A stretch of DNA of 64,000 nt from Squalus acanthias (GCA_030390025.1 CM059432.1:63986001-64050000); one strand, 5' to 3'; positions 5,050-57,438 are shown, numbered from the stretch's first letter. Numbers and translations are program-made. Notes: generated by a model from the sequence alone, not told the origin.

Positions 5050-5400
5050 CAACAATGACAACTTACATTTATATAGCACCTTTAATGTAATAAAACGTCC
5101 CAAGGCGCTTCACAGGAGTGTTATCAGAAAACAAAATTTGACACCGAGCCAAATAAGGAGATGTTAGGGCAGATGACCAAAAGCTTGGACAAAGAGGTAG
5201 ATTTTAAGGAGCATCTTAAAGGAGGAGAGAGAAGTAGAGAGCCGGAGAGATTTAGGGAGGGAATTCCAGAGCTTAGGACCTAGGCAGCTAAAGGCACGGC
5301 CGCCAATGGTGGAGCATTTAAAATCGGGGATATTCAAGAGGCCAGAATTGATGGAGCGCAGAGATCTCTGGGGTTTATAGGGCTGGAGGAGATTACAGAT
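5050..5400 (-). mobile_element. L2 LINE 3' fragment
   Basis: Minus strand RSLRS..SGLL...[17 protein letters not shown]...FK..LK, plus the L2-type 3' UTR and (TTG)n-like tail. Confidence 0.85.
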
Positions 5401-11072: not shown

Positions 11073-11597
11073 TCTACAAGGCACAAGTAAGGAGTGTGAT
11101 GGAATACTCTCCACTTGCCTGGATGAGTGCAGCTCCAACAACACTCAAGAAGCTCAACACCATTCAGGACAAAGCAGCCCGCTTGATTGGCACCCCATCC
11201 ACCACCTTAAACATTCACTCCCTCCACCACCAGCGCACCGTGGCTGCAGTGTGTACCATCTACAAGATGCACTGCAGCAACTCGCCAAGGTTTCTTCAGC
11301 AGCACCTCCCAAACCCGCAACCTCTACCACCTAGAAGGACGAGGGCAGCAGGCACATGGGAACACCATCACCTCCAATTTCCCCTCCAAGTCACACACCA
11401 TCCCGACTTGGAAATATATTGCCGTTCCTTCATCGTCGCTGGGTCAAAATCCTGGAACTCCCTCCCTAACAGCACTGTGGGAGTACCTTCACTACACGGA
11501 CTGCAGCGGTTCAAGAAGGCAGCTCAAGGGCAATTAGGGATGGGCAATAAATGCTGCCGTTGCCAGCGATACCCACATCACAGGGACAAACAAAAAA
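11073..11597 (+). mobile_element. 3' fragment of the LINE family seen full length at 43826-47076
   Basis: YKAQVRSVMEYSPLAWMSAAPTTLKKL... and tail GGGCAATTAGGGATGGGCAATAAATG. Confidence 0.9.
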
Positions 11598-11947: not shown

Positions 11948-13833
11948 ATGACTGCTTCAAGACCAAAGGCCTCTCCAAGATTCGATGATGACTCCCTTCA
12001 TGCTTTTGTGGAGGGAGTGAGGGCGCCAAGAGGTACTGTTCCCATCAAATGGACGGAGGAAGCCTCCTCAGCAAACCAAGGCAGCCTGGCTGCAAATTGC
12101 TGAGGAGGTGCGCGCCAGGTCTTTGTACTCACGCACCTGGGTTCAGTGTTGGAAAAGGTTCAATGACCTGCTACACACAGCAAAAGTGAGTATAACATCA
12201 CACTTACCTTCAGTCTGCTCCCCATCTCCTCTCATCACCAGCACTCTGCACTGTTAACCTACTCCTGCACATCCCACTTTACCCTTACATCCCTTGCACC
12301 CTTCACCATCCCTCTCACTCTATATACAGAATCACTTCACTATTCTACTATGCACCCCTCACACTCGCTATCACTGTTATGCAATGACAACAAATAACAA
12401 CGCACAGGGAGGGCCCTTGGTATTGGCACCTCACTCCATCTTTGTCTCCCTCTAAGCATCTATGCTATGGATTCTCTACACTCACTCCAACATTCTCGCT
12501 CAAACTCCACTTGCGTCCCTCATTGCAGGAAAGGAGAGCCCACAATAAGAAGGAGAGGGGCAGGACAGAAGGAGGGCCACCTTTGATTGCCCACTTGACC
12601 ACCGCTGAGGAGGCTGCTCTCGACATCGTCGGAGGTGCTGAGGAGCTGGAAGTGGGGGACAGTCAGACGGGTGCAGTAGAGCAACCTGGTGACAGAATAG
12701 ATTTGCAACCCTCTCATTTAGATTGCATGAGTGACTGAAATGGCATCTGATGTTCATACAGATTGAGTTCTGATCATCTGCACAATTCGATGTGCCTGCT
12801 ACGTTAATATCACATGTCTAACTCATGCATTTACTCCCCCACAGGACCATCAAGAGCCTCCCTCCCCACTGTCCAGGCGGAAGAGCCGGAAGACTCCTCA
12901 GAGGAAGCTGCAACCTCTGAGGGCGCAGTGTCAGCAGAATCGAGCACACCCGGCACCAGCGCAGAGACGCACACCTCGGTGGGTCATTCGCGAGATAGAT
13001 TAGTGTTGTCACCTGGTGTATCACAGCTCACAAGTGAGCTTCAGCAGATGGTGGAGACAGGGACAGCAGTGGAGAGTCCTCATCGGAGGTTGCAGGACGC
13101 TCCTAGCTCTGCTCAGCTGCATGTGAACCCTGTGCCTCTGGGGCCATCCAGAAAGAGAGCGGTGCTGGAACTTCAGCAACAAGTGCAGGAGTCTCTGACA
13201 GGATTTGCATCCACGGTAACTGCGAGTGTGCAGAGAATGGTGGAGTCCATCTCAAACATGAGCAATGCCGTGGTGGAGGCAATGGCGCATGAACGTGCCG
13301 CCATGGAGAGGGTGGCAACATCCTTGGAGGACATAAGTCACCAGACTCAACAGAGCACGGTGACTCTTCTAAATAGATGGTCTGCTATGGAGGATAGATG
13401 GGCATATATTGAGGAGAGACACCAGAGGTACATGGACGTCCCCGTTATGAGGACTGTCAGTACAGAGACGGGTCCTCATGGCCCCACTGATGTGCAGCAA
13501 GGTGCTCTTCAGCTACTTGAGAGGGATGTTGGTGGTCGACAACAAGGAAGTGTGGGCTCCTCTCCAAGCGCTCACACTCCCATGCCACTGCGGAGCCCTC
13601 GGTCAGAGCCCCAGATTCCTCACCCAACTGAAATGGCCGTCTCAGCCCCTGCACAGCCGCAGGAAGAGCAGACTGTTGCTGAGCCCTCCCAGGTTCCCAA
13701 ACCCAGAGGACGCCCGCCAAAGGTGTCAAAGCAAGAGCAGCATGAAAGTGAGCAAGGTGCCTCCACATCTGCTGAAGCCACAGGGGAAGCACTACATAGA
13801 AGCACGCGTAAGAGAAAGTTAACACACAAATAG
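11948..13833 (+). pseudogene. Harbinger Myb/SANT (trihelix) DNA-binding gene, 3 exons, about 462 aa, one frameshift
   Basis: Exons 11948-12185, 12529-12688 and 12845-13833 with GT-AG introns in phases 0 and 1. Motifs PRFDDDSLHAFVEGV, AAWLQIAEEV, RTWVQCWKRFNDL. Apparent 2-nt loss near 12025. C-terminal PKPRGRPPK and RSTRKRK. AATAAA at 13903. Confidence 0.85.
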
Positions 13834-14032
13834 TCACAAGGGTTGTCACTTGGGTGTTCTGATGTAATACAAAGTGAAGATTATCATCGTTATTTCAATT
13901 GTAATAAAGAAATGTGATGGCAAAGATTCAAAGAGTTGGCCTATGTGTGCCCAGAAATGGAAGTGTCACAGTGAGGTACCAGGGTGCCTTTCATCTGTAA
14001 TGATGGTGGTGAGAGTGATAGGAACCCACAGT

Positions 14033-14206
14033 TTATTGTACAGATGCCCTGCGCTGACACCCTCTGCCCTGTGCAGCATCAGGTGGGAGAGGAGGAGGTT
14101 GGCGCTCCTGTTGTTGCTGCTGCTGTTGTGCCTGGTTCTGCTGCTGCCACAGCTGCTCTTCCTCCAATTCTGAGGGACAGGATGAGAGGATATAAATGGT
14201 TCCCAT
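14033..14206 (-). pseudogene. Truncated N-terminus of the convergent second (presumed transposase) ORF
   Basis: MGTIYILSS...EEEQ-polyQ...PPDAAQGRG then stop; homologous remnants at 9540-9712, 3660-3770 and 52750-52890. Assignment rests on position, which matches the clearer HARBI remnant at 25810-25960. Confidence 0.55.
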
Positions 14207-14220
14207 TCTGCTGGTATATA

Positions 14221-14781
14221 CAGGAAACTCTTTGGTATCCGGCACCGACGGGACCGGCGTGGTGCCGGTTGATCGAAAGTTCCGGATAACGGAGAGTTAT
14301 ATCTACCGAGGCTATTTTTAACATTAAAAAATCAAGAACTGTGCAGTATACAGTATTTGGTTACTCACCTACAGAATGTTGTGTTAAATGGATGGTGGAA
14401 GATGCTTGATTAAGTACTGTACTGCCAGTTGAGGGTAACTCTTTAATTACTTAACAGTAAGTGAGACTCCCGGCAGCGCGGGAGAATCAGACTCCTGTTA
14501 CTGCAGTGTTCGGACTTCCGACAGCGCCAGGAGGCCGAGTAGTGGCACTTTGGAGAACTACCCCCACTGACTGACTCGGCGTTCGCGGGAGACTCGGACT
14601 CGGATTCGGCAACATTGCCGGTTATTTGAGAGGAGTTTTCGGAGTACTCGGCGTTCGCGGGAGACTCGGACTCGGACTCGGCAACATTGCCGGTTATTTG
14701 AGAAGAGTTTTCGGAGTATGATTTTTGCCGGTTAAGAGAGAATTCCGGATATTTAGGTGCCGGTTCAACAAGAGTTTCCTG
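14221..14781. mobile_element. Tc1/mariner-pogo (Tigger-like) MITE nested in Harbinger
   Basis: TIRs CAGGAAACTCTTTGGTATCCGGCACC / GGTGCCGGTTCAACAAGAGTTTCCTG; flanks TA/CA. Internal 72-bp tandem duplication at 14574-14718. Confidence 0.8.
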
Positions 14782-22372: not shown

Positions 22373-22487
22373 AGTTCTGGCGACTGGTCATCGACCTGAA
22401 ACGTTAACTCTCTTTCTCTCTCCACAGATGCTGTCTGACCTGCTGAGCATTTTATTTCAGATTTCCAGCATCTGCAGTATTTTGCTT
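22373..22487 (+). mobile_element. Penelope-derived short repeat with degenerate hammerhead
   Basis: Homologous to 43020-43152; core mutated to CTGGCGA...GACCTGAAACGTTAAC. Confidence 0.75.
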
Positions 22488-23618: not shown

Positions 23619-26499
23619 GGGGGTTAAATTGGACAGGGCCCGAAAATGGGCGTGGGGATCGTGATTGCGCGATTAACCCACGCCCGTTGATTCCGATGCA
23701 GGCAGCATGCCAACTTCATGCTATCTGCTAATTTACATGATTGCAGCATGCAGACAGCACTAAGTGCACTGCTGAATGGCTGCACGCCTAAGCAGGGGGA
23801 GCAAAATTGTGAGAGGCTTAAAGCCAGCCTGCACCTCTTAAAGTGGAGGTGCAGTGTGGCTGGAACAGGTGCTGGAAGTCATTGTGGAAGATATTCTGAC
23901 CTGGAAGAAGACACAATAATGGTGCAACAGAGGAGAGAGCAGGCTCCAAGACTTTCTGAAGCTGCACTGGTGGCCTTGGTGGAAGAGATGGAGAGGGGGA
24001 GAGATGTGCTCTATCTACAGGGACCAGGAGGCCCACCAGAAAAACTTTGCGAAGACAGTAGGACCAGATAGCCGTGGCGGTCAGTGCCAAGAGTCGAGCT
24101 CCGAGGACCTGGATGTAGTGCCGCAAAAAGTTCAATGACCTCACATGAGTTGCTAAGATCAGTAAATTCTTCAAATGCCATATTCCATCAACTGCACCAC
24201 TAGCCTCACACACTGCTCACCACACCCCCATCACTCACCTACCAACAATCTCTATCAATCACAACTCATATCTAATATTCATAGTTTCACCTCACCCTCA
24301 CACATTTAGCACTGCTACAAGCCTCACACCCACATCTCACAGCTTGCACACACTGCCAGCTATTCATCCATGACAGCCACATCACCCAAACACATTGCAC
24401 CACACTCACTGACACACTTCTCTCTCTGTTGCAGGACAAGGTGGCGCACAAATGGAGGCAGCAGGAGCTAACCGGTGCGGGACAGGCACACCTGCAACTC
24501 CTAAACCCCATGGAGGAGACGGTGCTGTCCATTATTGGAAAGGCCATTGCTGAGGTCGTGGCCAGTGGGGGGGCTGAAACCATAGAGGATGATGGTATCA
24601 TCATACCTAATCCCCCTTTTCACATCCCACTCCCCCTCATCCTACAATCTTTTCTGATTTACAAGTTGCACCTTGTAAGCATGGTGTAAGCCAAGCAGAC
24701 GCTGTGATGGTCAGTAACAGAGGAAAGGCAAGGTGTGGGACTGTTGGTGAGTTGGCAATTTTTTTTTTATTATTCGTTCATAGGATGTGGGCATTGCTGG
24801 TAAGGCCAGCATTTATTGCCCATCCCTAATTGCCCTTGAGAAGATGGTGGTGAGCCGCTTTCTTGAATCGCTGCAGTCCATGTGGTGAAGGTAGTCCCAC
24901 AGTGCTGTTAGGGAGGGAATTCCAGGATTTTGAACCAGCGAAGATGAAGGAACAGTGATATACTTCCAAGTCAGGATGGTGTGTGACTTGGAGGGCACCT
25001 TGGAAGTGGTGGTGTTCCCATGCGCCTGCCGCCCTTGTCCTTCTAGGTGATTGAGATTGCGGTTTTGGGAAGTGCTGTCGAAGAAGCCTTGGCGAGTTGC
25101 TGCAGTGCATCTTGTAGATGGTACACACTGCAGTCATGATGCGCCAGTGGTGGAGGGAGTGAATGTTTGAGGTGGTAGATGGGGGTGCTAATTAAATGGG
25201 CTGCTTTGTCCTGGATGGTGTTGAGCTTCTTGAGTGTTGTTGGAGCTGCTTTCATCCAGACAAGTGGAGAGTATTCCATCACACTCCTGACTTGTGCCTT
25301 GTAGATGGTGGAAAGGCTTTGGGGAGTCAGGAAATGAGTCAACCGCCGCAGAATACCCAGCCTCTGACCTGCTCTTGTAGCCATCGTATTTATGTGGCTG
25401 GTCCAGTTAGGTTTCTGGTCAATGGTGACCCCCAGGATATTGATGGTGGTGGATTCAATGATGGTAATATCGTTGAATGTCAATGAGTGGTGGTTAGACT
25501 CTCTTTTTGGAGATAATCATTGCCTGCCAATTGTGTAGCGCGGATGTTACTTGCCACTTATCAGGTCTTGCTGCATGTGGGTATGGACTGCTTCATTATC
25601 TGAGGAGTTGCGAATGGAGCTGAACACTGTGCAAACATCCCCACATCTGACCTTATGATGAAGGGAAGTTCATTGATTAAGCAAATGAAGATGGTTGGGC
25701 TTTGGACACAGCCCTGAGGAACTCCTGCAGCGATGTCTTGGGGCTGAGTTCATTGGCAGAATGTCTTTTGTTGTATGCATGTTATCCATGTGTGTGGGTT
25801 GCGCACTGGAGTCATGAAGCGCAGACATCTGACACACTGTCCCTTGCTGAGGTTCAGGTAGGAGAATTGCTCCCGGAACACCCTGGGCGAATATGGTCTC
25901 CTGCTGAGAGTCCTTCTCCCCCTCCTCCTCCTCCCTCTTCTTGCAGCTTGCCGTCCTCTGTGTTACCTCTGCTCATTCTCCCAATTATGCTGTATTCCAA
26001 GGGGAATACCGACTACTGGACCCATGTCTGGGAGCAATTGGTTTGTGCAGAAGCCTTGAACTCAGGCCAAAGACCTTCAGTGCCTGCCACACCACTCCCT
26101 GTAAACTTTAGCAAATTTAAAGAACTCTAGAAAGCACCTGACTTGTACAATTGCAGCAAGAGGCAATAGAATTCAATCAGCAACTAACCTGAAAGAGTTG
26201 ATGATCTCTTTAAATAGCACTGGTGGGACGTCCTTCCTGCTGCTGAACGCGTGTTCAGCTGTGTGAGCTTAAATGAGGGCGTTAGCTGGAGCTTTGAGCT
26301 TCAAAATTGATGTCATGATCTGTCTACTCTGCATATTTCCGGCCGACGTTCACTGCACGTGGGTTAATGCCTTCACCAACATGGCGTCTGGCACGACTCG
26401 CATCAGCAGTGTGTGCGCGTGCCGCTGATGCCATTTTGGACCTCCAAGGGCACTCGTAGCGCCCAAAAAACGGGTGCTGCGAATCTAGATTTTGCGCTC
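23619..26499 (+). mobile_element. Decayed Harbinger element: Myb exons on plus, HARBI1-like N-terminus on minus, nested LINE
   Basis: Myb exon 1 from 23919 (APRLSEAALVALVEEM...RTWM*CRKKFNDL), exon 2 at 24435-24594. Minus strand 25810-25920 reads RRPYSPRVFREQFSYLNLSKGQCVRCLRF. TIRs degenerate. Confidence 0.8.
24760..25745 (-). mobile_element. 3' fragment of the 43826-47076 LINE family
   Basis: INILGVTIDQKPNWTSHI...MEYSPLVW...SWNSLP, shared tail and poly(A). Confidence 0.9.
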
Positions 26500-32239: not shown

Positions 32240-35200
32240 ATTGTATTTTCCAACATACGTAAGTCATAACATCGAGATTGTAGACTGCTTTTCACCGTGA
32301 CTGCTGTTACATTCTATGGATAAGAGGAGCTTCCTAAGCTTCTGTAGACCATCTCAAGGGTCGACAGTTTTCAGTATAAAGGGACAAGCAGAATGGACTG
32401 TCTTTCTAATAGAGTCTATTTAAAAGAAGTGTTTAAACCATTTTTCATAGGATTACATAGGATATACGGCATAGAAACAGGCCATTTGGCCCAACCAGTC
32501 CATGCCGGCATTTATGCTCCACTCGAGCCTTCGCCCGTCTTTCCTCATCTAAATCTATCAGCATAACCCTCTATTCCCTTCTCCCTCATATGCTTGTCTA
32601 GCCTCCCCTTAAATGCATCTATACTATTCGCTTCAACCACTCCCTGTGGTAGCGAGTTCCACATTCTCACCACTCTTTGGGTAAAGAAGTTTCTTCTGAA
32701 TTCCCTATTGGATTTCTTGGTGACTATCTTATATTGATGACTTTTAGTTATGCTCTTCCCCACAAGTGGAAACATTCTCTCTGTATCCACTCTATCAAAA
32801 CCTTTCATAATTTTAAAGACCTCTATTAGGTCACCCTTCTTTTTTCAAGAGAAAAGAGACCCAGCCTATTCATCCTTTCCTGATATGTATACCCTCACAT
32901 TTCTGGTATCATCCTTGTAAATCTTCTCTGCACCCTCTCCAATGCCTCTATATCCTTTTTATAATATGGCGACCAGAACCGTACACAGCACTCCTAAGTG
33001 TGGTCTAACCAAGGTTCGATACAGGTTTAGCATAACTTCCCTTCTTTTCAATTCTATACCTCTAGAAATAAACCCGAGTGCTTGGTTTGCTTTTTTTATG
33101 GCCTTGCTAACCTGTGTTGCAACTTTTAGTGATTTGTGTATTGGTACTCCGAGTTCCCTTTGTTCCTCTACCCCACCTAGACTCACACACTCCAAGTGAT
33201 AAGTGACCTCCCTATTCTTCCTACCAAAATGTAATACCTCACATTTATCTGTGTTGAACTTCATTTGCCAATTATATGCCCATTCTGCAAGTTTATTAAT
33301 ATCCTCCTGTAACTTGTTGCAGTCCTCCTCAGTATTGACTATCCCCCCCAATTTGGTGTCATCCGCAAATTTAGAAATTGTGTTTTTGATTCCAAAGTCT
33401 AAATCGTTAATATAAATTGTGAACAACAGTGGTCCCAGCACTGATCCTTATGGAACATCATTACCCACCTTCTGCCACTGTGAATAGTTACCTTTTACCC
33501 CTACTCTCTGCTTTCTGTCTTGAAACCAGCTAGCTATCCATTCTGCTACTTGTCCCCTGACTCTGCATTCTCTGACCTTGTTCATCAGTCTATTATGGGG
33601 TACCTTATTGAAGGCCTTTTGAAAATCTAGATAAATTATATCTGCTGCATTACCATTGTCTACTCTCTCTGTTACCTCTTCAAAAAATTCAATGAGTTTG
33701 GTCAAGCAAGACTTTCCCTTTTGTAATCCATGCTGACTATTCATTATTATATTTTTGTTTTCTAGATGTTCTTCTATTTTCTCCTTTAGTAGGGATTCCA
33801 TTATTTTTCCTTACATCGATGTTAAGCTAACCGGTCTATAATTCCCTGGACATGTTCTATCCCCCTTCTTAAATATAGGTATTATGTTAGCTATCCGCCA
33901 GTCCTCTGGCAATACACCTTTTTCTAATGAATTATTACATATGTGCAGTAAAGCCTCTGCTATCTCTTCCCTAGATTCTTTTAAACTGCGTGGATGCAAT
34001 CCATCCGGACAAGGGGTTTTATCCTCTTTGAGTTTGATTTAATATATCCAATCTTTTTATTTTGAATGCACTTATCTCATTACTAATCTCATCATCCAAT
34101 GTCATGTCCACCTGCTCTATCTTCTTGGTAAATACTGAAGCAAAATAATTATTTAATATTTCTGCCATCTCTCTATCGTTACCTGTGGTATTATCCTGTC
34201 TATCCCTTAATGGCCCTATTCCCATCCCAACCTTCCTTTTTTTATTGATGTGCCTGTAAAATATTTTACTATTTTGTTTGATGTGCCTTGATAATTTAAT
34301 TTCATAGTTCCTCTTTGCCTTCCTAATTTTTTTTGACTTATCTCCTAATCTCTTTGTAATCTCCCTTATCATGCACTCCCCTGCTGTCTATGTACTTAAT
34401 GTTTGCCTCTTTCCTTACCCTCAATTGTTCCCTTACGGCTTTATTCATCCATGGAGTCTCATTAGTGTTTAGTTTGTTCTTTCCTTTTAGCGGAATATAT
34501 TGTTCCTGCACTCTGTTGAACGCCGTTTTAAATGTTTCCCATTGCTGTTCTACATCGTTGTTTGCCAATATTGTTGCCCATTTTATTTTCCCAAGTTCTA
34601 TGCTCAGTCCCTCAAAATCAGCTTTTCTCTAATCTATTACCTTGGGTTTCGTCATACTTATGTCATTCTCTTTTATTATCTTAAAGCGTATTATATTATT
34701 GTCACTATTGCCTAGATGTTCCCATACTTTTACTTCTCTTATCTGCTCTGGCTCATTCTCCATTACTAGATCCAATAACGAATCCTCCCTTGTTGGGCTT
34801 TTTTCCATATTGGGTTAGAAAGGAGTCCTGTACACATTGTAGGAACTCCATTCCCTTGTCCCCTTTACCTACCTCTTCTGTCCAATTAATATCGGGGTAG
34901 TTGAAATCCCCCATGATTATTATTCTATGTTTTTTACTCATTTCCCTAATTTGTCTGCATATTTCTTCCTCCACCTCCCTTCCAATATTAGGTGGTCTGT
35001 AGACTACATCTATTAGTTTGATTGATCCTTTATTATCTTTTAAATCTATTCATATGGATTCTATTTCTGTCTTGCTGATAGCTGCGTCACTTTTTTCTAC
35101 TGCCATTATGTTATCCCTAATAAGTACAGCTACTCCACCTCCCCTTTTTCCCTTTCTATCTTTTCTAAATATATTATACCCTACAATGTTTAATTCCCAG

Positions 35201-35510
35201 TCCGGATTTTTCTGTAGCCATGTGTCAGTAATCCCTACTATCTCTGGTTCCTTGCAACGCATGATTGCCTCCAGCTCCCCTGTTTTGTTACGAACACTGT
35301 GCGCATTGCTGTACAGACAGTTTAACTCATTTTTAATAGGATTTCCTCTCACTTTATGTTTAACCATCTTTTTAGACTCCTGTTCTATAACTCTATTTAT
35401 TCCCTTGCCATCAATGTCCTCCCTTACTTTTTTCTTTCCTATGCTCTCTTTTTCTGTTTTGTTTATAATTAGGCTGGTTACATTTCTTGTAGATCCCTTC
35501 CCCCATCTTG

Positions 35511-36660
35511 CTAGTTTAAAGCCTTTGCCACCTCCCTACTTACGATTTCCGCTAGGACACGGGTCCCATCCTGGTTCAGGTGGAGCCCGTCCCATTGGTA
35601 CAGCTCCTTCCTGTCCCAGAACTGGTGCCAGTGTCCCATGAAAAGAAACTCCTCTTTCCCACACCAGCCCTTTAGCCACGTGTTAATTCTCCTGATCTGT
35701 CTGCTTCTAATGCGGAGATGCCGGTGTTGGACTGGGGTGGACAAAAATGAGAAGTCGCACAACACCAGGTTATAGTCCAACAGTTTTATTTAAAATTACG
35801 AGCTTTCGGAGCTGTACGAAGGGGCAACAGCTCCGAAAGCTCGTAATTTTAAATAAAACTGTCGACTATAACCTGGTGTTGTGCGACTTCTCATTTTTGT
35901 CTGCTTCTATGCCAATTTACATGTGGCTCCGGCAATAATCCAGAGATTATTACCCTCGAAGTCCTGCTTTTTAATTTAGAGCCTAGCTCCTGATAGTCTT
36001 TCAGCAGGACCTCCTCCCTGTTCCTACCTATGTCGTTTGTTCCAACATGGACCACGACAACTGGATTTAACCCCTCCCTTTCCAAGTTCCTCTCCAGCCG
36101 CCACCAGATATCCCATACCCTGGCACCAGGTAGACAACACACCCTTCGAGATTCTCATTTTTGGCTGCAGAGGACACTATCTATCCCCCTAATTATAGAG
36201 TCCCCTATCAATGCCACAATTCTATTCTGCTCTTCCCCCGCCTTGTACAGCCTTCTGAGCCACGGTGCTTTGGTCTGCATTGTGGCTGTCCTCCCTGCAG
36301 TCTTTCTCCTTGTCCTCACAGGTAGCAAGTACTTCGTAACTGTTGCACAGGACCAGTGTCTGCGGGACCTCTTTCTCAACTTCTCCTAAATCCCTGCTAC
36401 CCGGCTCCCTAGCAGTCACATCCTCCCCTTCCTGAACCTGTGCTTTCCTCTGGGGTGTGACTGCATTCTGGATAAAACTGTCCAGGAATTCCTCCCCTCC
36501 CTTATGTGTCGGAGTGTCTCCAACTCGCACTCCAACTCAATGACTCTGAGCCGGAGAGATTTGAGATGGAGACATCTCCTGCAGACGTGTTCGCTCGGGA
36601 CAGACTCACTGTCCACAAACTCCCACATTCTGCAGTCGAGACCCACAATCTGCCCTGCTA
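35511..36660 (-). pseudogene. CR1 ORF1: zinc finger/leucine zipper plus SGNH esterase domain
   Basis: CRMWE...HVCRRC, heptad leucines, GDSIIRG, VVVHVGTND, DGLHLN. Frameshifted and interrupted at 35710-35897. Confidence 0.9.
35710..35897. mobile_element. Palindromic Penelope-type short insertion, 12-bp TSD
   Basis: Inverted arms form a long hairpin. TGTCTGCTTCTA at 35698-35709 and 35898-35909. Same family as 50033-50238. Confidence 0.88.
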
Positions 36661-36920
36661 TATCTTAGTCTAGCCTTATTTTATTTATTTAATTAGTTAA
36701 AGTCTTTATTCAATGATTATTTATAGTTATATTAATTAGTTTACCTAGTTAAGCTATAAATTTAATACAGTACTTTGCAGTTTTCCGCACCTTGTTTAAA
36801 CCACTGTCCTAGGTTAGAGAGAAAAGAGAGAAAAACAACCTTAATACTCACCAACCAATCACCTACCTGCTGTCCTGTGATGTCACTCCTTGTTTTTTTG
36901 GAAATCGTCGAAGGTTTGGC

Positions 36921-37320
36921 CACCGCTGATATCGCCTCCAATTAGGTTCGCGCTGCCCGGTCTCCCGCTGTTTAACTACCGCCGCCACTGATACCGCCTC
37001 CAATTAGGTTCGCGCGGCCCGGTCTCCCGCTGTTTAACTACCGCCGCCACTGATACTGCCTCCAATTAGGTTCGCGCTGCCCGGTCTCCCGCTGTTTAAC
37101 TACCGCCGCCACTGATACCGCCTCCAATTAGGTTCGCGCTGCCCGGTCTCCCGCTGTTTAACTACCGCCGCCACTGATACCGCCTCCAATTAGGTTCGCG
37201 CTGCCCGGTCTCCCGCTGTTTTAAGTACAGCCGCCACTGATACCGCCTCCAATTAGGTTCGCGCTGCCTGGTCTCCCGCTGTTTAACTACCACCACCACT
37301 GATACCGCCTCCAATTAGGT
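36921..37320 (-). repeat. 62-bp CpG-rich tandem repeat (about 6.5 units) at the CR1 5' end
   Basis: ATTAGG recurs at 36941, 37003, 37065, 37127, 37189, 37252 and 37314. Confidence 0.95.
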
Positions 37321-40056: not shown

Positions 40057-40805
40057 ATGACTATCCCCAACAAGTGAGAGTCTAACTACCGCCCCTTGAC
40101 ATTCAACGGCATTACCATTGCCGATTCTCCCACCATCAACATCCTGAGGGTCACCACTGAGCAGAATTTTAACTGGACCAGCCACATAAATACTATGGCT
40201 ACAAGAGCAGGTCAGAGGCTGCGTATTCTGCGGCGAGTGTCTCACCTCCTGACTCCCCAAAGCCTTTCTACCATCTACAAGCATAAGTCAGGAGTGTGAT
40301 GGAATATTCTCCACTTGCCTGGATGAGTGCAGCTCCAACAACACTCAAGAAGCTTGACACCATCCAGGACAAAGCATCCTGCTTGATTGGCACCCCATTC
40401 ACCATCTTAAACATTCACTCCCTCCACCACTGGCGAACCGTGGCTGCAGTGTGTACCATCTGCAAGATGCACTCCAGCAACTCACCAAGACTTCTTCGAC
40501 AGCACCTCCCAAACCTGCGACCTCTACCACCTAGAAGGACAAGAGCAGCAGGCGCATGAGAACACCACCACCTCCAAGTACCCCTCCAAGTCACACACCA
40601 TCCTGAATTGGAAATATATCGCGTTCCTTCATCGTCACTGGTCAAAATCCTGGAACTCCCTCCCTAACAGCTGTATGGGAGTACCTTCAGGGACTGCAGC
40701 GGTTCAAGAAAGCAGCTCACCACCACCTTCTCAAGAGCAATTAGGGATGGGCAATAAATGCTGACCTTGCCAGCGATGCCCACATCCCAGGAACGAATAA
40801 AATAA
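40057..40805 (+). mobile_element. 3' fragment of the 43826-47076 LINE family
   Basis: TFNGITIADSPTINIL...MEYSPLAWMSAAP and shared tail. Confidence 0.9.
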
Positions 40806-42921: not shown

Positions 42922-43019
42922 TATGTCTTCAGCTCCCATTATACAAACACTTTTACTTCTTGGGTTCATAAGCATGTCATACTTGTTCCTAAAGTGGCAG
43001 CTAATATTAGAAAGGAGAG

Positions 43020-43152
43020 TTCTGATGAAAGGTCATCGACCTGAAACGTTAACTCTCTTTCTCTCTCCACGGATGCTGCCTGGCCTGCTGAGTTTTTCCA
43101 GCGTTTTCTGTTGTTATTTCAGATTTCCAGCATCCGCAGTATTTTGCTATCG
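43020..43152 (+). mobile_element. Penelope-derived short repeat with intact minimal hammerhead, 15-bp TSD
   Basis: TATTAGAAAGGAGAG at 43005-43019 and 43153-43167; GAGTT-CTGATGA-AAGGTC ATC GACCT-GAAAC GTT-AACTC. Confidence 0.85.
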
Positions 43153-43276
43153 TATTAGAAAGGAGAGGTCATTTATTTGTCCATTTTTTAAAATTTCAAA
43201 CTGTGGGTGTAAGTTGTGATACAGGTGAATCCAAATTCACATGAAGGAGGCCTGCACTACAAGGCTTTGACAGGAG

Positions 43277-43825
43277 TCATCCATGCCTTTGTTATATCTA
43301 AACTTGACTATTCCGATGCTCTCCTGGCCAGCTCTCGATCTCTCACCCTACATAAACTTGAACTCATCGAAAACTCTGCTGCCCGTGTCCTAACTCGCAC
43401 CAAGTCCCGTTCACCCAGCACCCCTGTGCTTGCTGACCTACATTGGCACCCGGTCCAGCACGCCTCGATTTTAAAATTCTCATCCATGTTTTCAAATGCC
43501 TCCATGGCCTCGCCCTTCTCTATTTCTATAACCTCCTCCAGCCCTGCAACCCTCTGAGATCTCTGCGCTCCTCCAATTCTGGCCTTTTGCGCATCCCTGA
43601 TTTTCTTTGCTCCACCATTGGTGGCCGTGCCTGTAGCTGCCTAGGCGCTAAGCTTTGGAATACCTTCGCTAAACCTGTTCACATCTCCCTCCTCCTTTAA
43701 GGTGCTCCTTAAAACCTACCTCTTTGACCCTGTGCTATTAGCTGCTTAGGTGGCTCAGTGTCAAATTCTGTTTGATAATGCACCTGTGAAGCGCCTTGGG
43801 ACGTTTTACTACGTTAAAGGCGTTA
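43277..43825 (+). mobile_element. L2 LINE 3' fragment; tail resumes at 47077-47103
   Basis: IHAFVISKLDYSDALL...NSAARVLT...GGRA...KLWN; 3' UTR split at TTAAAGGCG|TATATAAATG. Confidence 0.88.
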
Positions 43826-46800
43826 GCGGGAACGGTAGCATAGTGGTTATGTTACTGGACTAGTAATCCAGAGTCCTGATCCAGAGACGTGAGTTCAAAT
43901 ACCCACCACAGCAGCTGGGGAATTTAAATTCAGTTAATTAAATAAATCTGGAATAAAAAGCGAGTATGGTGACCATGTAAATATCGGATTGTCGTAAAAC
44001 CCCATCTGGTTCAATAATGCCCTTTAGGAAAGGAAATCTGCCTATTTGTGATTCCAGACCCACAGCAATGTGGTTGACTCTGAACTGCCCTCTGAAATGG
44101 CCTAGCAAGCCACTCAGTTGTAACAAACCGCTATGAAAACCAATAATAAGAATAAAACCGGACGGACCACCCGGCATCGACCTTGGCACCGGCTTCGGAC
44201 ATGATAATGGCACACCCAGCCAAGTCGACCCTGCAAAGTCCTCCTTACTAACATCTGGGACTTGTGCCAAAATTGGGAGAGCTTTCCCACAGACTAGTCA
44301 AGCAAAAGCCTGATATAGTCATACTCACAGAATCATACCTTTCAGCCAATGTCCCAAACTCCTCCATCACCATCCCTGGGTATGTCCTGTCCCAGCAGCA
44401 GGACAGACCCACCAGAGGTGGTGGCACAGTGGTATACAGTCGGGAGGGAGTGGCTCTGGGAGTCCTCAACATTGACTCTGGACCCCAGGAAATCTCATGG
44501 CTTCAGGTCAAGCACGGGCAAGGAAACCTCCTGCTGATTACCACCTACCGCCCTCCCTCAGCTGATGAATCAGTACTCCTCCATGTTGAACACCACTTGG
44601 AAGAAGCACTGAGGGTAGCAAGGGCACAGAATGTACTCTGGGTGGAGGACTTCAATGTCCATCACCAAGAGTGGCTCAGTAGCACCACTACTGACCGAGC
44701 TGGCTGAGTCCTGAACGACATAGTTGCCAGACTAGGACTGCAGCAGGTGGTGAGAGAACCAACATGAGGAGAAAAACCTACTTGACCTCGTCCTCACCAA
44801 TCTACCTGTCGCAGATGCATTTGTCCATGACAGCATTGGTAGCAGTGATCACCGCACAGTCATTATGGAGACTAAATCTTGTCTTCACACTGCAGGACAC
44901 TCTTCCATCGTGTTGTGTGGCACTCCCACCGTGCTAAATGGGATAGATTCAGAACCGATCTAGCAGCTCTAAACTGAGCATCCATGAGGTGCTGTGGGCC
45001 ATCAGCAGCAGCAGAATTGTATTCCACCACAATCTGTAACCTCATGGCCTGGCATATTCCTCATTCTACCATTACCATCAAGCCAGGGGACCAACCCTGG
45101 TTCAATGAGGAGTGCAGAGGAGCATGCCAGGAGTAGCACTAGGTGTACCTAAAAATGAGGTGCCAACCTAGGAAGCTGCAACACAGGACTACATGAATGC
45201 TAAACAGCGGAAGCAGCATGCTATAGAGAGAGCTAAGCAATCCTACAATCAATGGATCAGACCAAAGCTCTGCAGTCCTGCCACATCCAGTCGTGAATGG
45301 TGGTGGACAGTTAAACAACTAACGGGAGGAGGAGGCTGCATGAATATCCCCATCCTCAATGATGGTGGAGCCCTGCATGCAAGTGCAAAAGACAAGGCTG
45401 AAGCGTTTGCAACCATCTTCAGCTAGAAGTGCCGAGTGGATGATCCATATCAGCCTCCTCCTGAGGTCCCCACCATCACAGAAGCCAATCTTCAGCCAAT
45501 TCGATTCACTCCACGTGATATCAAGAAACAGCTGAGCGCACTGGATACAGCAAAGACTATGGGCCCCGACAACATCCCGGCTGTCATGCTGAACACCTGT
45601 GCTCCAGAACTAGCCGCCCCTCTAGCCAAGCTGTTCCAGTGCAGCTACAACACTGGCATCTAACCGACAATGTGGAAATATGTCCAGGTATGTCTTGTGC
45701 ACAAAAAGCAGGACAAATCCAATCCAGCCAATTACCGCCCCATAAGTCTACTCTCAATCATCAGCAAAGTGATGGAAGGTGTCGTCGACAGTGCTATCAA
45801 GTGGCACTTACTCACCAATAACCTGCTCACCACTGCTCAGTTTGGGTTCCGCCAGGACCACTCGGCTCCAGACCTCATTACAGCCTTGGTCCAAACATGG
45901 ACAAAAGAGCTGAATTCCAGAGGTGAGGTGAGAGTGACTGCCCTTGACATCAAGGCAGCATTTGACCGAGTGTGGCATCAAGGAGCCCTAGTAAAATTGA
46001 AGTCAATGGGAATCAGAGGGAAAACTCTGCACTGGCTGGAGTCATACCTAGCACAAAGGAATATGGTTGTAGTTGTTGGAGGTCAATCATCTCAGCTCCA
46101 GAACATCGCTGCAGGAGTTCCTCAGGGCAGTGTCCTTGGCCCAACCATCTTCAGCTGCTTCATCAATGACCTTCCCTCCAACATAAGATCAGAAGTGGGG
46201 ATGCTCGCTGATGATTGCACAGTGTTCAGTTCCATGCGCAACTCCTCAGATAATGCAGCCCATTCAGGCTTTGGCTGATAAGTGGCAGGTAACATTCGTG
46301 CCACACAAGTGCCTGGCAATGACTCTCTCCAACAAGCGAGAGTCTAACCACCGCCCCTTGAAATTCAACGGCATTACCATCGCCGAATCTCCTGCCATCA
46401 ACATCCTGGGGGGTCACCATTGACCAGAAACTTAACTGGACCAGCCACATAAATACTGTGGCTGCAAGAGCAGGTCAGAGGCTGGGTATTCTGCGGCGAG
46501 TGTCTCACCTCCTGACTTCCCAAAGCCTTTGCACCATCTACAAGGCACAAGTCAGGAGTGTGATGAAATACTCTCCACTTGCCTAGATGAGTGCAGCTCC
46601 AACAACATTCAAGAAGCTCAACACCATCCAGGACAAAGCAGCCCGCTTGATTGGCACCCCATTCACCACCTTAAACATTCACTCCCTCCACCACTGGCGT
46701 ACCGTGGCTGCAGTGTGTACCATCTACAAGATGCACTGCAGCAACTCACCAAGGCTTCTTTGGCAGCACCTCCAAAACCCACGACCTTTACCACCTAGAA

Positions 46801-47076
46801 GAACAAGGGCAGCAGGCGCATGGGAACACCATCACCTGCAAGTTCCCCTTCAAGTTACACACCATCCTGACTTGGAAATATATCGCCGTTCCTTCATCGT
46901 TGCTGGGTGAATATCATGGAACTCCCTCCCTAACAGCACTGTGGGCGTACCTTCACCTCAAGGACTGCAGCGGTTCAAGAAGGCGGCTCACCACCACCTT
47001 CTCAAGGGCAATTAGGGATGGGCAATAAATGCTGGCCTTGCCAGCGACGCCCACATCCCATGAACTAATAAAAAAA
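43826..47076 (+). mobile_element. Single-ORF APE+RT LINE with tRNA-like 5' head, disabled
   Basis: A box TAGCATAGTGG (43836), B-box-like GTTCAAATACC (43893). ORF about 44130-47020 with PDIVILTESYL, DFNVHH, SDH, NYRPISLLS, LDIKAAFD, VPQGSVLGP, LADD. A-rich tail. Confidence 0.9.
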
Positions 47077-47611
47077 TATATAAATGTAACTTCTTGTTGT
47101 TGTCTCATTCGCATACTTGTTGCAAAGGTGTTCATCCCAAGAGGAGTAGCATGAGATAATTGAGAACAAAGAAGACAGAGGCAAACCACAATATAAGGAG
47201 ATATTGGTTGTGCTCAGATTGTCTCTGTAGCTTGTTGGAAAATTTAAATAAAAAGTTCTTAAAATAATCAAGAGTGGTAACAGAAGCAAAGATGTTGCTG
47301 GTAAAAGCTTGAGATCAGAATAGAGGAAATGCAGATCGACCATGAAGATTGGTGGGGCTGGTACTGATTCCAGGCAATGGGCTCTCACAGCCCGCCTGCC
47401 ACTGATGATGGAATTGGTCTGCTGAAAATTGAGCACCATCTCCCTTTATCCCCTTTCCTTTCATCCACCGCTCCATTCCAATCTTGAATGTTCACATACT
47501 TTCTGTCTCAACCATTAAACCTAGAAATAAATTCCACGACCTTACAACTCTTTGTGTAAGGAAGTGTCTCTTGCTCTCTGTTCTAAATCTTACATTTAAT
47601 CTTGTATCTAT

Positions 47612-48120: not shown

Positions 48121-48129
48121 TTGTGGGCT

Positions 48130-48487
48130 GCAGAAGGTCACAGAGATAGGGAGGGGCGAGGCCATGAAGAAATTTAAACATGAGATTTTAAATTGGAGGT
48201 GTTGGTGAACTGGGAGCCAGTGTAGGTCAGTGACTACAGTGTGATAGGTGATTGGGACTTGTTGCGGGTTAGAATACAGACAGCAGAGTTTTGCATGAGC
48301 TGGATTTTGTTGAGAGCACAGGATGGGAGGCCGACCAAGAGAGCATTGGAATAGTCGAGTCTGGAGGTGACAAAGGTGTGGATGAGGGTTTTGGCAGCAG
48401 GTGGGCTGGACTAGGGGCAGAGACGGGCGATCTTACAAAGGTGGAAGTAGTTGGTCTTTGTGATGGAGAGGATATGGGTCAGGAGCT
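48130..48487 (-). mobile_element. L2 fragment
   Basis: Reverse of [16 protein letters not shown]...QNSA; similar to 55258-56172. Confidence 0.8.
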
Positions 48488-49050: not shown

Positions 49051-50032
49051 AGAATGTTGAAATAGTAGGCTGAAAGAAAGATTTGAATGATTTAAAAATA
49101 TCTATATTTCTTCTCATGACGTGCGTGACACAGACAAGAATGCATTTATTGCCCATCTCTAGTTGTCCAGTGACTTGCTAGGCTGCTTCAGAAGGCATTA
49201 ACAGTTCACCCTGTATGGTGGGACTGGAGTTAGGACAGGGCAGGGATGATGTTCCCTTCCCTGAAGGACATAGGATTACATTACATAGGATATACAGCAC
49301 AGAAACAGGCCATTCGGCCCAACCAGTCCATGCTGGCGTTTATGCTCCACTCGAGCCTCCTCCCGTCTTTCCTCATCTAAATCTATCAGCATAACCCTCT
49401 ATTCCCTTCTCCCTCATATGCTTGTCTAGCCTCCCTTAAATGCATCTATACTATTCGCTTCAACCACTCTCTGTGGTAGCGAGTTCCACATTCTCACCAC
49501 TCTTTGGGTAAAGAAGTTAAATGGCTGTAATCCCCTTCCCACCTCGAGGATGACCGGGTCAGGTACCCACCTCCTGGGAAGATGGCATGGAGGTGGGTTG
49601 GGGGCGCAATGGGTACCCGCCCCTAGATTCTGCCATTTTCCCGGCAGTCCCGCCTCCAAACCCGCCTCCCCAGGGCTGCAAAATCGCCCCCTTTGTGTGG
49701 TCCAACCAAGGTTCGATACAGGTTTAGCATAACTTCCCTACTTTTCAATTCTATACCTCTAGAAATAAACCCTAGTGCTTGGTTTGCTTTTTTATGGCCT
49801 TGCTAGCCTGTGTCGTAACTTTTAATGATTTGTGTATTTGTACTCCTGGATCCCTTTGTTCCTCTACCCCACCTAGACTCGCACCCTCCAAGTGATAAGT
49901 GACCTCCCTATTCTTCCTACCAAAATGTAATACCTCACATTTATCTGTGTTGAACTTCATTTGCCAATTATATGCCCATTCTTCAAGTTTATTAATGTCC
50001 TCCTGTAACTTGTTGCAGTCCTCCTCAGTATT

Positions 50033-50238
50033 CATGATGTGGAGATGCCGGTGTTGGACTGGGGTGGACAAATGTGAGAAGTCGCACAACACCAGGTTAT
50101 AGTCCAACAGCTTTATTTGAAATCACAAGCTTTCGGAGCGCTGCTCTTTCACCTGACGAAGGAGCAGCGCTCCGAAAGCTTGTGATTTCAAATAAAGCTG
50201 TTGGACTATAACCTGGTGTTGTGCGACTTCTCACATTT
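50033..50238. mobile_element. Palindromic Penelope-type insertion with hammerhead, 12-bp TSD
   Basis: CTCCTCAGTATT at 50021-50032 and 50239-50250; long inverted arms. Confidence 0.9.
50149..50185 (+). ncRNA. Minimal type I hammerhead ribozyme motif
   Basis: TCAC-CTGACGA-A-GGAGC AGC GCTCC-GAAAG CTT-GTGA: stem I TCAC/GTGA, stem II GGAGC/GCTCC, palindromic AAGCTT stem III. Confidence 0.75.
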
Positions 50239-50519
50239 CTCCTCAGTATTGACATTAGTGAACCAGTTTATATGATCAAGAGGTTTTTTTGCAGTATAAC
50301 CTCCCATGGTCTGAAAGATCATAGCAGTGTGATACCTGTTGCATAGCTTTCCATACAGTGAGTCATTTCTATGGAGCAGGTGGAAGAGGAGGCTCAGCTA
50401 CAACCGTTCCAAGAGGACACTGAGACTGACGATCCTAGCTGAACTCCAGATACAGACAGAAAGAATCATATGGTGCAAGACACCATCTCTGCCATTGTCC
50501 TCTGCCCTACCACAGATAC

Positions 50520-55049: not shown

Positions 55050-56228
55050 AGAACTGAGACTGATGTAGTGCTTTCATATACTCAGGATGTCCCAAAATTC
55101 TGTACAATGAATAGATTTCTTTTGAAGTGCAGTACATCTTTTACATCCACCTGAACAGATAGACAAGGCTTCAGTTTAACACTTCATCTGGGAAAAAGCC
55201 CACCTCTGACAATGCAGCACATCCTCAGTGCTGCGCTGAAGTGTCAGCCTAGATTATACAACAACAACAACAACTTGCACTTATATAGCGGCTCTAATGT
55301 AGTAAAACATCCCAAGGTGCTTCACGGGCGCGTAATCAAACAAAATTTGACACTGAGCCACATAAGGAGGTCAAAGAGGTAGGTTTTAAGGAGCGTCTTA
55401 ATGGAGGAGAGAGAGGTAGAGAGTGAGGGAATTCCAGAGCTTAGGGCCCCGGCAGCTGAAGGCACAGCTGCCAATGGTGGAGCGATTAAAATTGAGAATG
55501 CGCAAAAGGCCAGAATTGGAGGAGCACAGAGATCTCGGAGAGTTGTAGGGCAGCAGAGTTTTGGATGAGCTCAAGTTTATGGAGGGTGGAAGATGGGAGG
55601 CCGGCCAGGAGAGCATTGGAATAGTCAAGTCTAAAGATAACAAAGGCATGGATGAGGGTTTCAGCAGCAGATGAGCTGAGGCGGGGTGGAGTCGGGCGAT
55701 GTTATGGAGATGGACGTAGGCAGTCTTGGTGATGGAGCGGATATGAGATCGGAAGCTTATCTTGGGGTCAAATATGACACCAAGGTTGCGAACGATCTGG
55801 TTCAGCCTCAGACAGTTGCCAGGGAGAGGGATGGAGTCAGTGGCTAGGAAACGGTTTGTGGGGGTGACCGAAGACAATGGCTTCGGTCTTCCCAATATTT
55901 AGTTGGAGGAAATTTCTGCTTATCCAGTTCTGGATGTCGGACAAGTAGTGTGACAAATCAGAGACAATGGAAGGATCGAGAGAGGTAGTGGTGAGTTCGA
56001 ACTTGGTATCATCAGCGTATATGTGGAAACTGATGCTGTGTTTTCCGATGAGGTTGCTGAGGGGCAGCATGTAGATGAGAAATAGGAGGGGGCCAAGGAT
56101 AGATCCTTGGGGGACTCCAGAGGTAATGGTGCAGGAATGGGAAGAGAAGCCATTGCAGGTGATTCTCTGGCTATGTGCTCAAGTCTCTGGAGTGGGGCTT
56201 AAACCTACAACCTCCTGACTCAGAGGCA
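55050..56228 (-). mobile_element. tRNA-derived SINE (55050-55257 and 56173-56228) split by an L2 fragment (55258-56172)
   Basis: L2 part: [34 protein letters not shown] and (TTG)n tail. Flanks join as CCTAGATTAT|GTGCTCAAG with a B-box-like GGTTTAAGCCC on minus. Confidence 0.75.
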
Positions 56229-56981
56229 ACACTTTGTACCCAACGTAGCACCCAATGGAGCACTGTGCAGATGCAAGGCATACCACAAACTGACAGGTCC
56301 TATGTTATCCAAATGCATTCAGCTTCTAAATTCCAAATAGGAAATTACATTAGTAACAGAAGTTTGAGATAAATTTACAGGCTATTTACCAAGTATTCCC
56401 ACTGAAAGAATATAAATAAAGGTAATATTGATAAGAGAAAGACAATTTAGGTGAACAAGATATTAAGAATGTTGTCCCCCCCATGATAGCAGGCAACACA
56501 GAAGTCTAAAGGGAACTGGAAAAAGCTGATGATGAAAGGCAGAAAGTAGGAAACTATGGAGACAGACTCTCATGCCTTCCACATGTGGCAGCTTGCAAGA
56601 AGACCAGCTCAAAAATGTACATCAGATGCACCACACTCCATAGAGACTCCACCTCCTCCTGCTGGATGAGTGTTGGAAGGGTTATAACCAGATAGGCACA
56701 CAATCCATGCATTCAGGCAATACTGGCACATCCAGCCAGAGGCCACGACAGCTATGAGTAGCCTTGCAATTCCTCCAGACCCAGTCCCATGTCTGCTGAA
56801 ACTGCCCCAGTAGTCGCTTCCTGCCTCCAAAGTGTAGGCTAGTTTACCTCTCATCAGTAGCTGCAGGTAGGTACGTCCCCCAGTGGTAGTAATATGCTAC
56901 CCCACTCTGTAAAATATCTCTGGGATATATACTGGTTTGGAATGGTTGCTTTATGGCCTTTGAGAAATACCAGATATATGG

Positions 56982-57438
56982 TAGCAAAATACTGCGGATG
57001 CTGGAAATCCGAAATAACAACAGAAAACGCTGGAAAAACTCAGCAGGCCAGGCAACATCCGTGGAGAGAGAAACAGAGTTAACGTTTCAGGTCGAAACCC
57101 TTCGTCGGAACTGAGAGAAAAGCAAGAAATTAAACAGATAAAAATGCAAGGGGGAGGCTGGGGGGAGGAATACAAGAACAAAAGGGTTGGTCTATGGTAA
57201 GTAGAGACATTAAGAGATGCTCAAGGCAAGACGAGATGGTAATGGGACAGGTTAAGAAACAAAAGCTGAGGTGTGAAAAGCTGGCAGAATGAGACAGCTG
57301 CCGTAGGGGGAGAGAGAGAAATTTTTTTTTTTTTAAAAGGAAAAAGGCACGGACCAAAAGGGGTGGATAAAATGTATATATATGTGGGAGGGGCCGGGGT
57401 TATGATCTGAAATTGTTGAACTCGATATTGAGTCCGGA
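56982..57438 (-). mobile_element. Penelope-like element 3' portion, 8-bp TSD
   Basis: ATATATGG at 56974-56981 and 57439-57446. Minus strand begins SGLNIEFNNFRS*, resembling the C-terminus of a Penelope GIY-YIG ORF, and continues into the hammerhead-bearing repeat (core mutated to CCGACGA). Confidence 0.8.

Follow-up and report, generated by a model that had tools for sequence, protein, structure and literature searches.

The locus and its insertion site

The window analysed here is a stretch of 64,000 nucleotides of Squalus acanthias DNA. Judging by its sequence, it holds a dead copy of an elasmobranch Zenon LINE, that is, an element of the CR1 group with one ORF and a poly-A end. The copy sits within the 3' end of an older LINE. 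The left part of this host (43213-43825, + strand; BLASTN and tail alignment) stops at a duplicated TA and resembles L2 remnants at 5079-5399, 48125-48385 and 55286-55655 (BLASTN), while the right part (47077-47102, + strand) was delimited by alignment with intact tails. From the tail type, we take the host to belong to the L2 clade. The first-pass annotation had described a 3.25-kb block interrupting an L2 tail after 43825, with the tail continuing from 47077, and comparison with two intact L2 tails of the window bears this out; the same reference yields a target duplication of 2 bp (TA). The annotation also let the element begin at 43826, slightly too early: contig flanks and consensus starts place the family start at 43828/43829.

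The element opens with a tRNA-derived head (43828-43905, + strand), which was defined from an Rfam tRNA match, a motif scan, contig flanks and consensus starts. The Rfam match (43829-43883; 24.7 bits, E = 0.0087) stays below the 29-bit gathering score, nothing in the whole window matches Rfam at gathering level, and ARAGORN called no tRNA in the head. Of the A- and B-box-like motifs first noticed at the start of the block, the A box was recovered by motif scan at 43836-43846; the B box (43892-43903) is degenerate, was missed in this copy by a strict pattern, and contains one extra base that is absent from 13-89 contigs per run. With its tRNA derivation and two boxes the head is of SINE2 type, at a sub-gathering Rfam score. 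The element as a whole does not have the size (about 100-700 bp) or the non-coding character of a SINE2: at 3.25 kb, with an apurinic endonuclease (APE) and a reverse transcriptase (RT), it is not classed as a SINE.

The head is followed by a SINE-like body (43906-44119, + strand), recognized from the part it has in common with a fragment at 49141-49275 and from consensus starts. We take this body to be Deu-like; in the present copy it is short by about 20 bp near 44040, where contigs have loose ends. A linker (44120-44231, + strand), delimited by eye from consensus starts and by a frame check, leads to the endonuclease. Predicted folds are unremarkable in all three parts (z = -0.11 for the head, +0.71 for the body and -0.54 for the linker), and this decayed copy thus lends no support to a ribozyme or IRES fold.

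A single decayed ORF (44232-47015, + strand, with its stop codon at 47013-47015) was recognized from Pfam matches, translation and protein identity, and comprises the apurinic endonuclease, the RT and a C-terminal region. Two of the six ORF pieces submitted to Pfam gave matches: Exo_endo_phos_2 within 44252-44704 (E = 7e-6, below the curated cut-off) and RVT_1 within 45664-46275 (E = 1e-31, matching about 45706-46245). Nine stops across the six in-frame pieces, plus frameshifts, make it a dead ORF. Its identity is 68-78% to three close proteins, one of which is a named whale-shark model; for the RT, the named relatives are a whale-shark model (72%) and a moth protein (40%). Other single-ORF relatives reach up to 50%, among them proteins 940-1,060 residues long (42-49%), encoded on 3.1-4.3-kb contigs, and the other LINE remnants of the window reach 26-32%, with one 32-residue match at 44%. 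The gap between body and endonuclease is only about 110 nt, which leaves no room for an ORF1, as had been claimed. This absence is real, but to present it as a peculiarity was an overstatement, because it is standard for Zenon: in the portions of Stuart et al. (2026, PMC13343379) available to us, all Zenon elements are without ORF1 and all end in poly-A, an end unique among CR1-group elements.

The 3' tail common to the element and the short derivative (47002-47069, + strand) is made up of the final codons of the LINE itself plus its 3' UTR. It is kept in four copies within the window and is predicted to form a stem-loop (fold of 46990-47076: z = -2.67, with 0 of 200 shuffles equally stable). 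AATAAA occurs at 47024, 43-52 nt upstream of the A-tail, and at 47067. The A-rich end AATAAAAAAA (47067-47076, + strand) was delimited from the sequence and from contig flanks, which diverge after 47064-47076 in all four runs considered below, and A-rich 3' ends are found on all four window copies, in keeping with the poly-A end of Zenon. The other three copies, all identified by BLASTN, are 5'-truncated and hence uninformative on the head junction; they lie at 24765-25755 (- strand, 85% identical), 40057-40805 (+ strand, 90%, within a CR1-type remnant) and 11073-11597 (+ strand, 89%).

Several further repeats surround these copies. A short repeat at 43018-43157, with copies at 22373, 27604, 51612 and 56976-57112, starts with CTGATGA, a hairpin and GAAA, a layout that we take to resemble that of minimal hammerhead ribozymes in Penelope-like elements; the family has no Rfam match at gathering level. 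At 32452-35286 (- strand) lies a long remnant of CR1 type that matches endonuclease and RT, and upstream of it there is a tandem array with a 62-bp period (36919-37320).

The front end in other elasmobranch elements

Is the head a property of this locus or of the family? We examined the first 400 nt of each of about 1,004 vertebrate CR1-group consensus sequences in the available portion of PMC13343379 (Supplementary Table 2). Seven starts contain the body motif, all of them elasmobranch Zenon, and it is absent from the remaining 1,000 or so. Compared by eye, all seven open with head, body and linker, and their first 400 nt identify our element as Zenon, SquAca_Zenon-1 being the nearest consensus. 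The seven represent four sharks and one ray: spiny dogfish (SquAca_Zenon-1/2/3, with identical start positions), white shark (CarCar_Zenon-1), whale shark (RhiTyp_Zenon-1), catshark (ScyCan_Zenon-1) and Atlantic stingray (HypSab_Zenon-1). Six B-box spellings match six starts, every one an elasmobranch Zenon. In the same source, Zenon elements of five elasmobranch species are more than 84% identical and group with crustacean elements, and the family makes up 4.4% of the dogfish genome, 6.8% of the whale shark and white shark genomes, 0.7% in the stingray and 0.018% in the chimaera. T-runs occur in the three hagfish and coelacanth Zenon starts of this supplement, and by eye none of the three has such a head; their 5' ends, partly in lower case, may be incomplete, which weakens the polarity of a gain of the head.

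As far as these sequences go, the head is a family-wide feature of elasmobranch Zenon in sharks and a ray. A one-off chimera or assembly artefact, in which a SINE would lie by chance ahead of a truncated LINE, has in its favour only the prior expectation that such neighbours arise often. It is refuted by the recurrence of the head-ORF junction in the seven consensus sequences of five species and in whale-shark gene models, and the single insertion site in the L2 tail speaks against it as well; we consider it next to impossible. Nor do the full-length elasmobranch Zenon consensus sequences in the available supplement offer another 5' UTR or an ORF1: they keep head, body and linker.

Public sequencing runs give the same picture. 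At least half of the sampled words of 43826-44700 are contained in 14 of the 24 listed runs, from five organisms, whereas in six (X19-X24) the share is 0.08 or less. Contig depth, loose ends and joints were taken from four of these 24 runs, from four organisms. Summed contig depth, which is not a copy number, is 587k, 141k, 372k and 17k in the linker bin (44168-44284) versus 41, 60, 25 and 0 in unique flank; for the three larger runs, depth in the head bins is of the same order as in the linker. Toward the 3' end depth climbs, as expected of 5'-truncated LINEs. Among the 24 loose ends listed, out of 17,695, none falls within 44090-44250. In three runs, the contigs with unrelated flanks before 43828 number 683, 953 and 804, counts that may include SINE copies. 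Relative to this copy, one run differs at 199 places; T>C and A>G account for 94 of these, a pattern that we read as about 6% CpG decay.

Gene models were a further source: 15 proteins were found with an endonuclease piece. Body-derived peptides precede the endonuclease in the whale-shark models P0006 and P0014; of the body peptides, two were matched in 0 of 2000 shuffles and a third in 16 of 2000, each with 0 of 404 control windows. Linker peptides are contained in models P0005, P0006 and P0015, and two of these, P0006 and P0015, cross into the endonuclease frame, through either an indel or an intron. When proteins were searched with the body-linker peptide, 11 candidates came back, none of them a match, and scans of genome, metagenome and viral contig collections found nothing.

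Positions 44152-44154 read ATA here and ATG in six of the seven published elasmobranch Zenon starts. The distance from this ATG to the endonuclease is similar to that of the first Met in seven of the nearer full-length relatives (24-43 residues). Yet this codon does not share the frame of the endonuclease, either in this copy or, by eye, in the stingray consensus; the offset is equal in both despite a 6-nt indel, and no in-frame ATG for the endonuclease was seen. From these sequences, translation of the ORF would need a frameshift, reinitiation or a non-AUG start. The ATG at 44133 shares the endonuclease frame, but we do not take it for the start codon: all three dogfish consensus starts read ACG at that position. 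In the available part of Supplementary Table 3 (PMC13343379), intact ORF2 is nearly absent among near-full-length elasmobranch Zenon (0/2313, 1/1419, 3/612, 0/59, 0/396 and 1/294, one cell being garbled), which suggests either that Zenon is largely extinct or that the ORF2 start was mis-called.

The family and its loss of ORF1 were known already; the available parts of PMC13343379 describe neither the SINE head nor the T-run avoidance or the short derivatives. The words tRNA and promoter do not occur in the available main text of PMC13343379, SINE occurs once (in the reference list), and its supplement, to the extent available, is without tRNA. A CR1-Zenon-like LINE is named once in the accessible text of bioRxiv 10.1101/443036, where tRNA goes unmentioned, and a motif search of two supplementary files of PMC4824008, available in part, gave no match. 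A search of the accessible literature, outside Repbase, Dfam and subscription papers, turned up no account of the head on shark Zenon.

Short derivatives and the origin of the front end

An old short derivative (49141-49275, - strand; nhmmer E = 8e-6) joins the body directly to the tail. Its 49141-49271 segment scores 36 against the body and 39 against the tail, each with 0 of 1000 shuffles. A 16-bp upstream continuation lies past nested insertions at 50251-50266 (- strand); this motif has two matches in the window, and 0 of 100 shuffles had at least two. Beyond 50251-50266, matching to the tRNA head is no better than chance (288 of 1000 shuffles), and the SINE label of the fragment thus rests on the family and not on this copy. 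Of the first-pass description of 49141-49271 as an old SINE, the direct joint of body and tail stands; a tRNA head was not found there. The insertions that split the derivative (49141-50266) all lie within the SINE body and comprise a CR1-type 3' end, itself holding another repeat, then a palindromic repeat. A repeat at 50030-50248 (related to 35710-35901), which adjoins the old SINE-like fragment, has a hammerhead-like core, is internally palindromic and is flanked by 10-bp direct repeats.

Comparable body-to-tail joints occur in contigs of the four runs, as seen among the 15 listed of 9,693. The joints 44122>46974 (10, 21, 9 and 7 contigs in the respective runs), 44122>46980 (8, 18, 7, 2) and 44112>47001 (6, 26, 4, 1) were found throughout, while 44118>47002 (0, 3, 4, 19), 44120>47002 (0, 1, 0, 23), 44133>46952 (2, 1, 1, 0) and 44188>46929 (2, 0, 0, 0) were found in some; taken together, joints at 44112-44122 are present in all four runs, that at 44133 in three and that at 44188 in one. 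Among the joints listed, 5' and 3' parts of the LINE are combined, its middle is lost and there are several breakpoints, the pattern of SIDE or bipartite elements. As to the very 5' end, the head was not found on the local fragment, and the contigs are too short for head-to-tail linkage. The breakpoints reach into the linker and the end of the ORF, which argues for deletion from the LINE, more than once. These sequences point to SINE-sized forms made by repeated internal deletion of the Zenon LINE.

Multiple breakpoints would also suit an opposite history, in which an old Zenon lineage had head and body as its native 5' UTR and Deu-type SINEs in general descend from it by internal deletion. 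Published cases go some way in this direction, as far as the accessible texts extend: Zenon produced internally deleted elements in Lepidoptera (PMC6740152), Zenon tails are found on bivalve Deu, V, Core and Meta SINEs (PMC11481361), and LINE 5' ends have been proposed as a source of SINE bodies (Kojima 2018, PMC5786205). However, the SINEs of chimaera and coelacanth that combine tRNA and Deu parts bear an L2-like tail (PMC5499810), Zenon-masked DNA makes up just 0.018% of the chimaera genome (PMC13343379), and non-elasmobranch vertebrate Zenon starts in the available supplement are without the body motif. We regard this reverse polarity as improbable. The presence of tRNA-Deu SINEs in chimaera and coelacanth, together with other Zenon starts that have no head, makes capture the best reading: the front end was likely taken by a Zenon ORF from an older tRNA SINE. 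Either a LINE adopted a SINE head or the SINE arose by deletion, according to the first-pass annotation; in our view both probably happened, capture earlier and the derivatives later.

T-runs, transcription and known parallels

Runs of T stop Pol III. Over 3,244 nt, TTTT is absent from the sense strand of the element and occurs 15 times on the antisense strand; the element falls within the longest TTTT-free stretch of the window's + strand (3,816 nt). The three other window copies (2.25 kb) hold one TTTT, private to one copy, and six other LINE remnants of the window have 2.8-8.2 TTTT per kb. None was seen by eye in the first 400 nt of the seven elasmobranch Zenon starts, within a supplement that holds 2,750 TTTT in all (PMC13343379). 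Separately, about 2.1 kb at 12181-14314 are TTTT-free on both strands.

With composition held constant the depletion is modest. Base shuffles average 5.3 TTTT, with 4 of 500 as low as the element; TTTT is missing from 10 of 300 dinucleotide shuffles, and likewise from 113 of 2000 shuffles of the element's own codons. The last result, with 37 of 898 codons in the wrong frame, is not significant, and all these controls were made on one copy. Codon choice itself may be the T-run effect (phenylalanine is encoded by 14 TTC and 4 TTT). T-run depletion is suggestive of Pol III rather than proof of it.

A serious rival holds that Pol II transcribes the chimeric family, either from a body promoter or by host read-through, with the head as a relic or as a mark of the start site. 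Low T content would then be a Zenon trait, as the borderline codon-shuffle test allows, and T-run avoidance may indeed be general in Zenon, the head-less Zenon having been compared by their 400-nt starts rather than their coding regions. LINEs are Pol II transcripts by default, as far as the accessible texts say (PMC10886601, PMC5786205), and the length of SINEs, 100-700 bp, has been ascribed to a limit in Pol III processivity (PMC10886601). The two AATAAA motifs fit Pol II equally, and a capped RNA would dissolve the problem of translation. Set against this, A and B boxes are retained across five species of the published consensus set, with a canonical B box in three; hundreds of contigs begin at the tRNA 5' end, some perhaps from SINE copies; and T-run extension declines from 0.18 to 0.12 to 0 while A-run extension stays at about 0.28. 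We find Pol II transcription rather unlikely, if well worth keeping in mind.

Pol III transcription of the element has, from its sequence, about an even chance. We lean slightly toward a scenario in which the 5' end of Zenon is a captured tRNA-SINE head and body that drives such transcription, and in which the LINE has shed SINE-sized derivatives. In this scenario, the fusion between a tRNA SINE front end and a Zenon ORF would date to an elasmobranch ancestor, and the fused element would have spread and later shed short forms. Its A and B boxes would launch a 3.3-kb Pol III transcript starting at the head, which, being without T-runs, would run past the A-tail as far as the first TTTT in the genomic sequence beyond it (47620 here). 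The ORF protein would bind the 3' stem-loop and prime reverse transcription at the A-tail, a mode of priming that would leave a very short target duplication. Repeated internal deletion would then yield SINE-sized derivatives that keep front end and tail. Translation of an uncapped RNA is the weak point of the Pol III model. R2 is translated uncapped. To go further and call elasmobranch Zenon an autonomous SINE, made by Pol III from a captured tRNA promoter, purged of T-runs, translated uncapped from an unusual start site and the immediate parent of its own SINEs, is a reading of these sequences of which we remain more doubtful than confident.

In the usual division, LINEs are Pol II mRNAs and SINEs short Pol III RNAs, and, in the accessible text of PMC5786205, 'SINEs cannot encode a protein'. 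A high-copy LINE of sharks and a ray that opens with a tRNA SINE head blurs this division, whichever polymerase reads it. Should it be Pol III, the element would provide a natural 3.3-kb protein-coding Pol III transcript in which uncapped translation could be put to the test. A conserved SINE body standing before an ORF also makes the function of the body assayable; if these elements are autonomous SINEs, the 'highly conserved domain' of SINEs could for the first time become open to tests of whether it acts in translation or transposition, and such elements would have reached 4-7% of some shark genomes. Counts of SINEs, tRNA pseudogenes and LINEs overlap in shark genomes, and should be read with this in mind.

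Among known systems, whose descriptions we take from the accessible parts of each source, elasmobranch Zenon (PMC13343379) is the same family, matching in its 5' 400 nt, length (2.9-3.3 kb), single ORF and poly-A. SacSINE1 and LmeSINE1 (PMC5499810), of sharks, rays, chimaera and coelacanth, likewise combine, as described, a tRNA head with a conserved body; they differ in being non-coding, shorter than 470 bp and tailed like L2-2_CM or CR1-4_DR. R2 is a protein-coding LINE without a Pol II promoter of its own, freed by a ribozyme from an rRNA co-transcript (PMC5786205); unlike Zenon, it is a Pol I co-transcript, is site-specific and has no tRNA head.

The first-pass contrast, by which SINEs share only the 3' tail with their partner LINE, was drawn too sharply: elements sharing both ends are on record in the available texts of PMC5786205 and PMC6740152. 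Bipartite derivatives of RTE and Vingi, such as Bov-tA, are SINEs that share two regions with a LINE (Kojima 2018, PMC5786205); there, however, the tRNA head was joined after the deletion and the LINE is without it. RTE-1_DAn and related elements, on the other hand, are LINEs with tRNA-like sequence (PMC5786205). The Persaeus elements of Lepidoptera (Wang et al. 2019, PMC6740152) are short elements with both Zenon ends produced by repeated internal deletion, which keep the Zenon 5' end and have neither tRNA homology nor a Pol III promoter, whereas in sharks the parent LINE itself bears the tRNA head.
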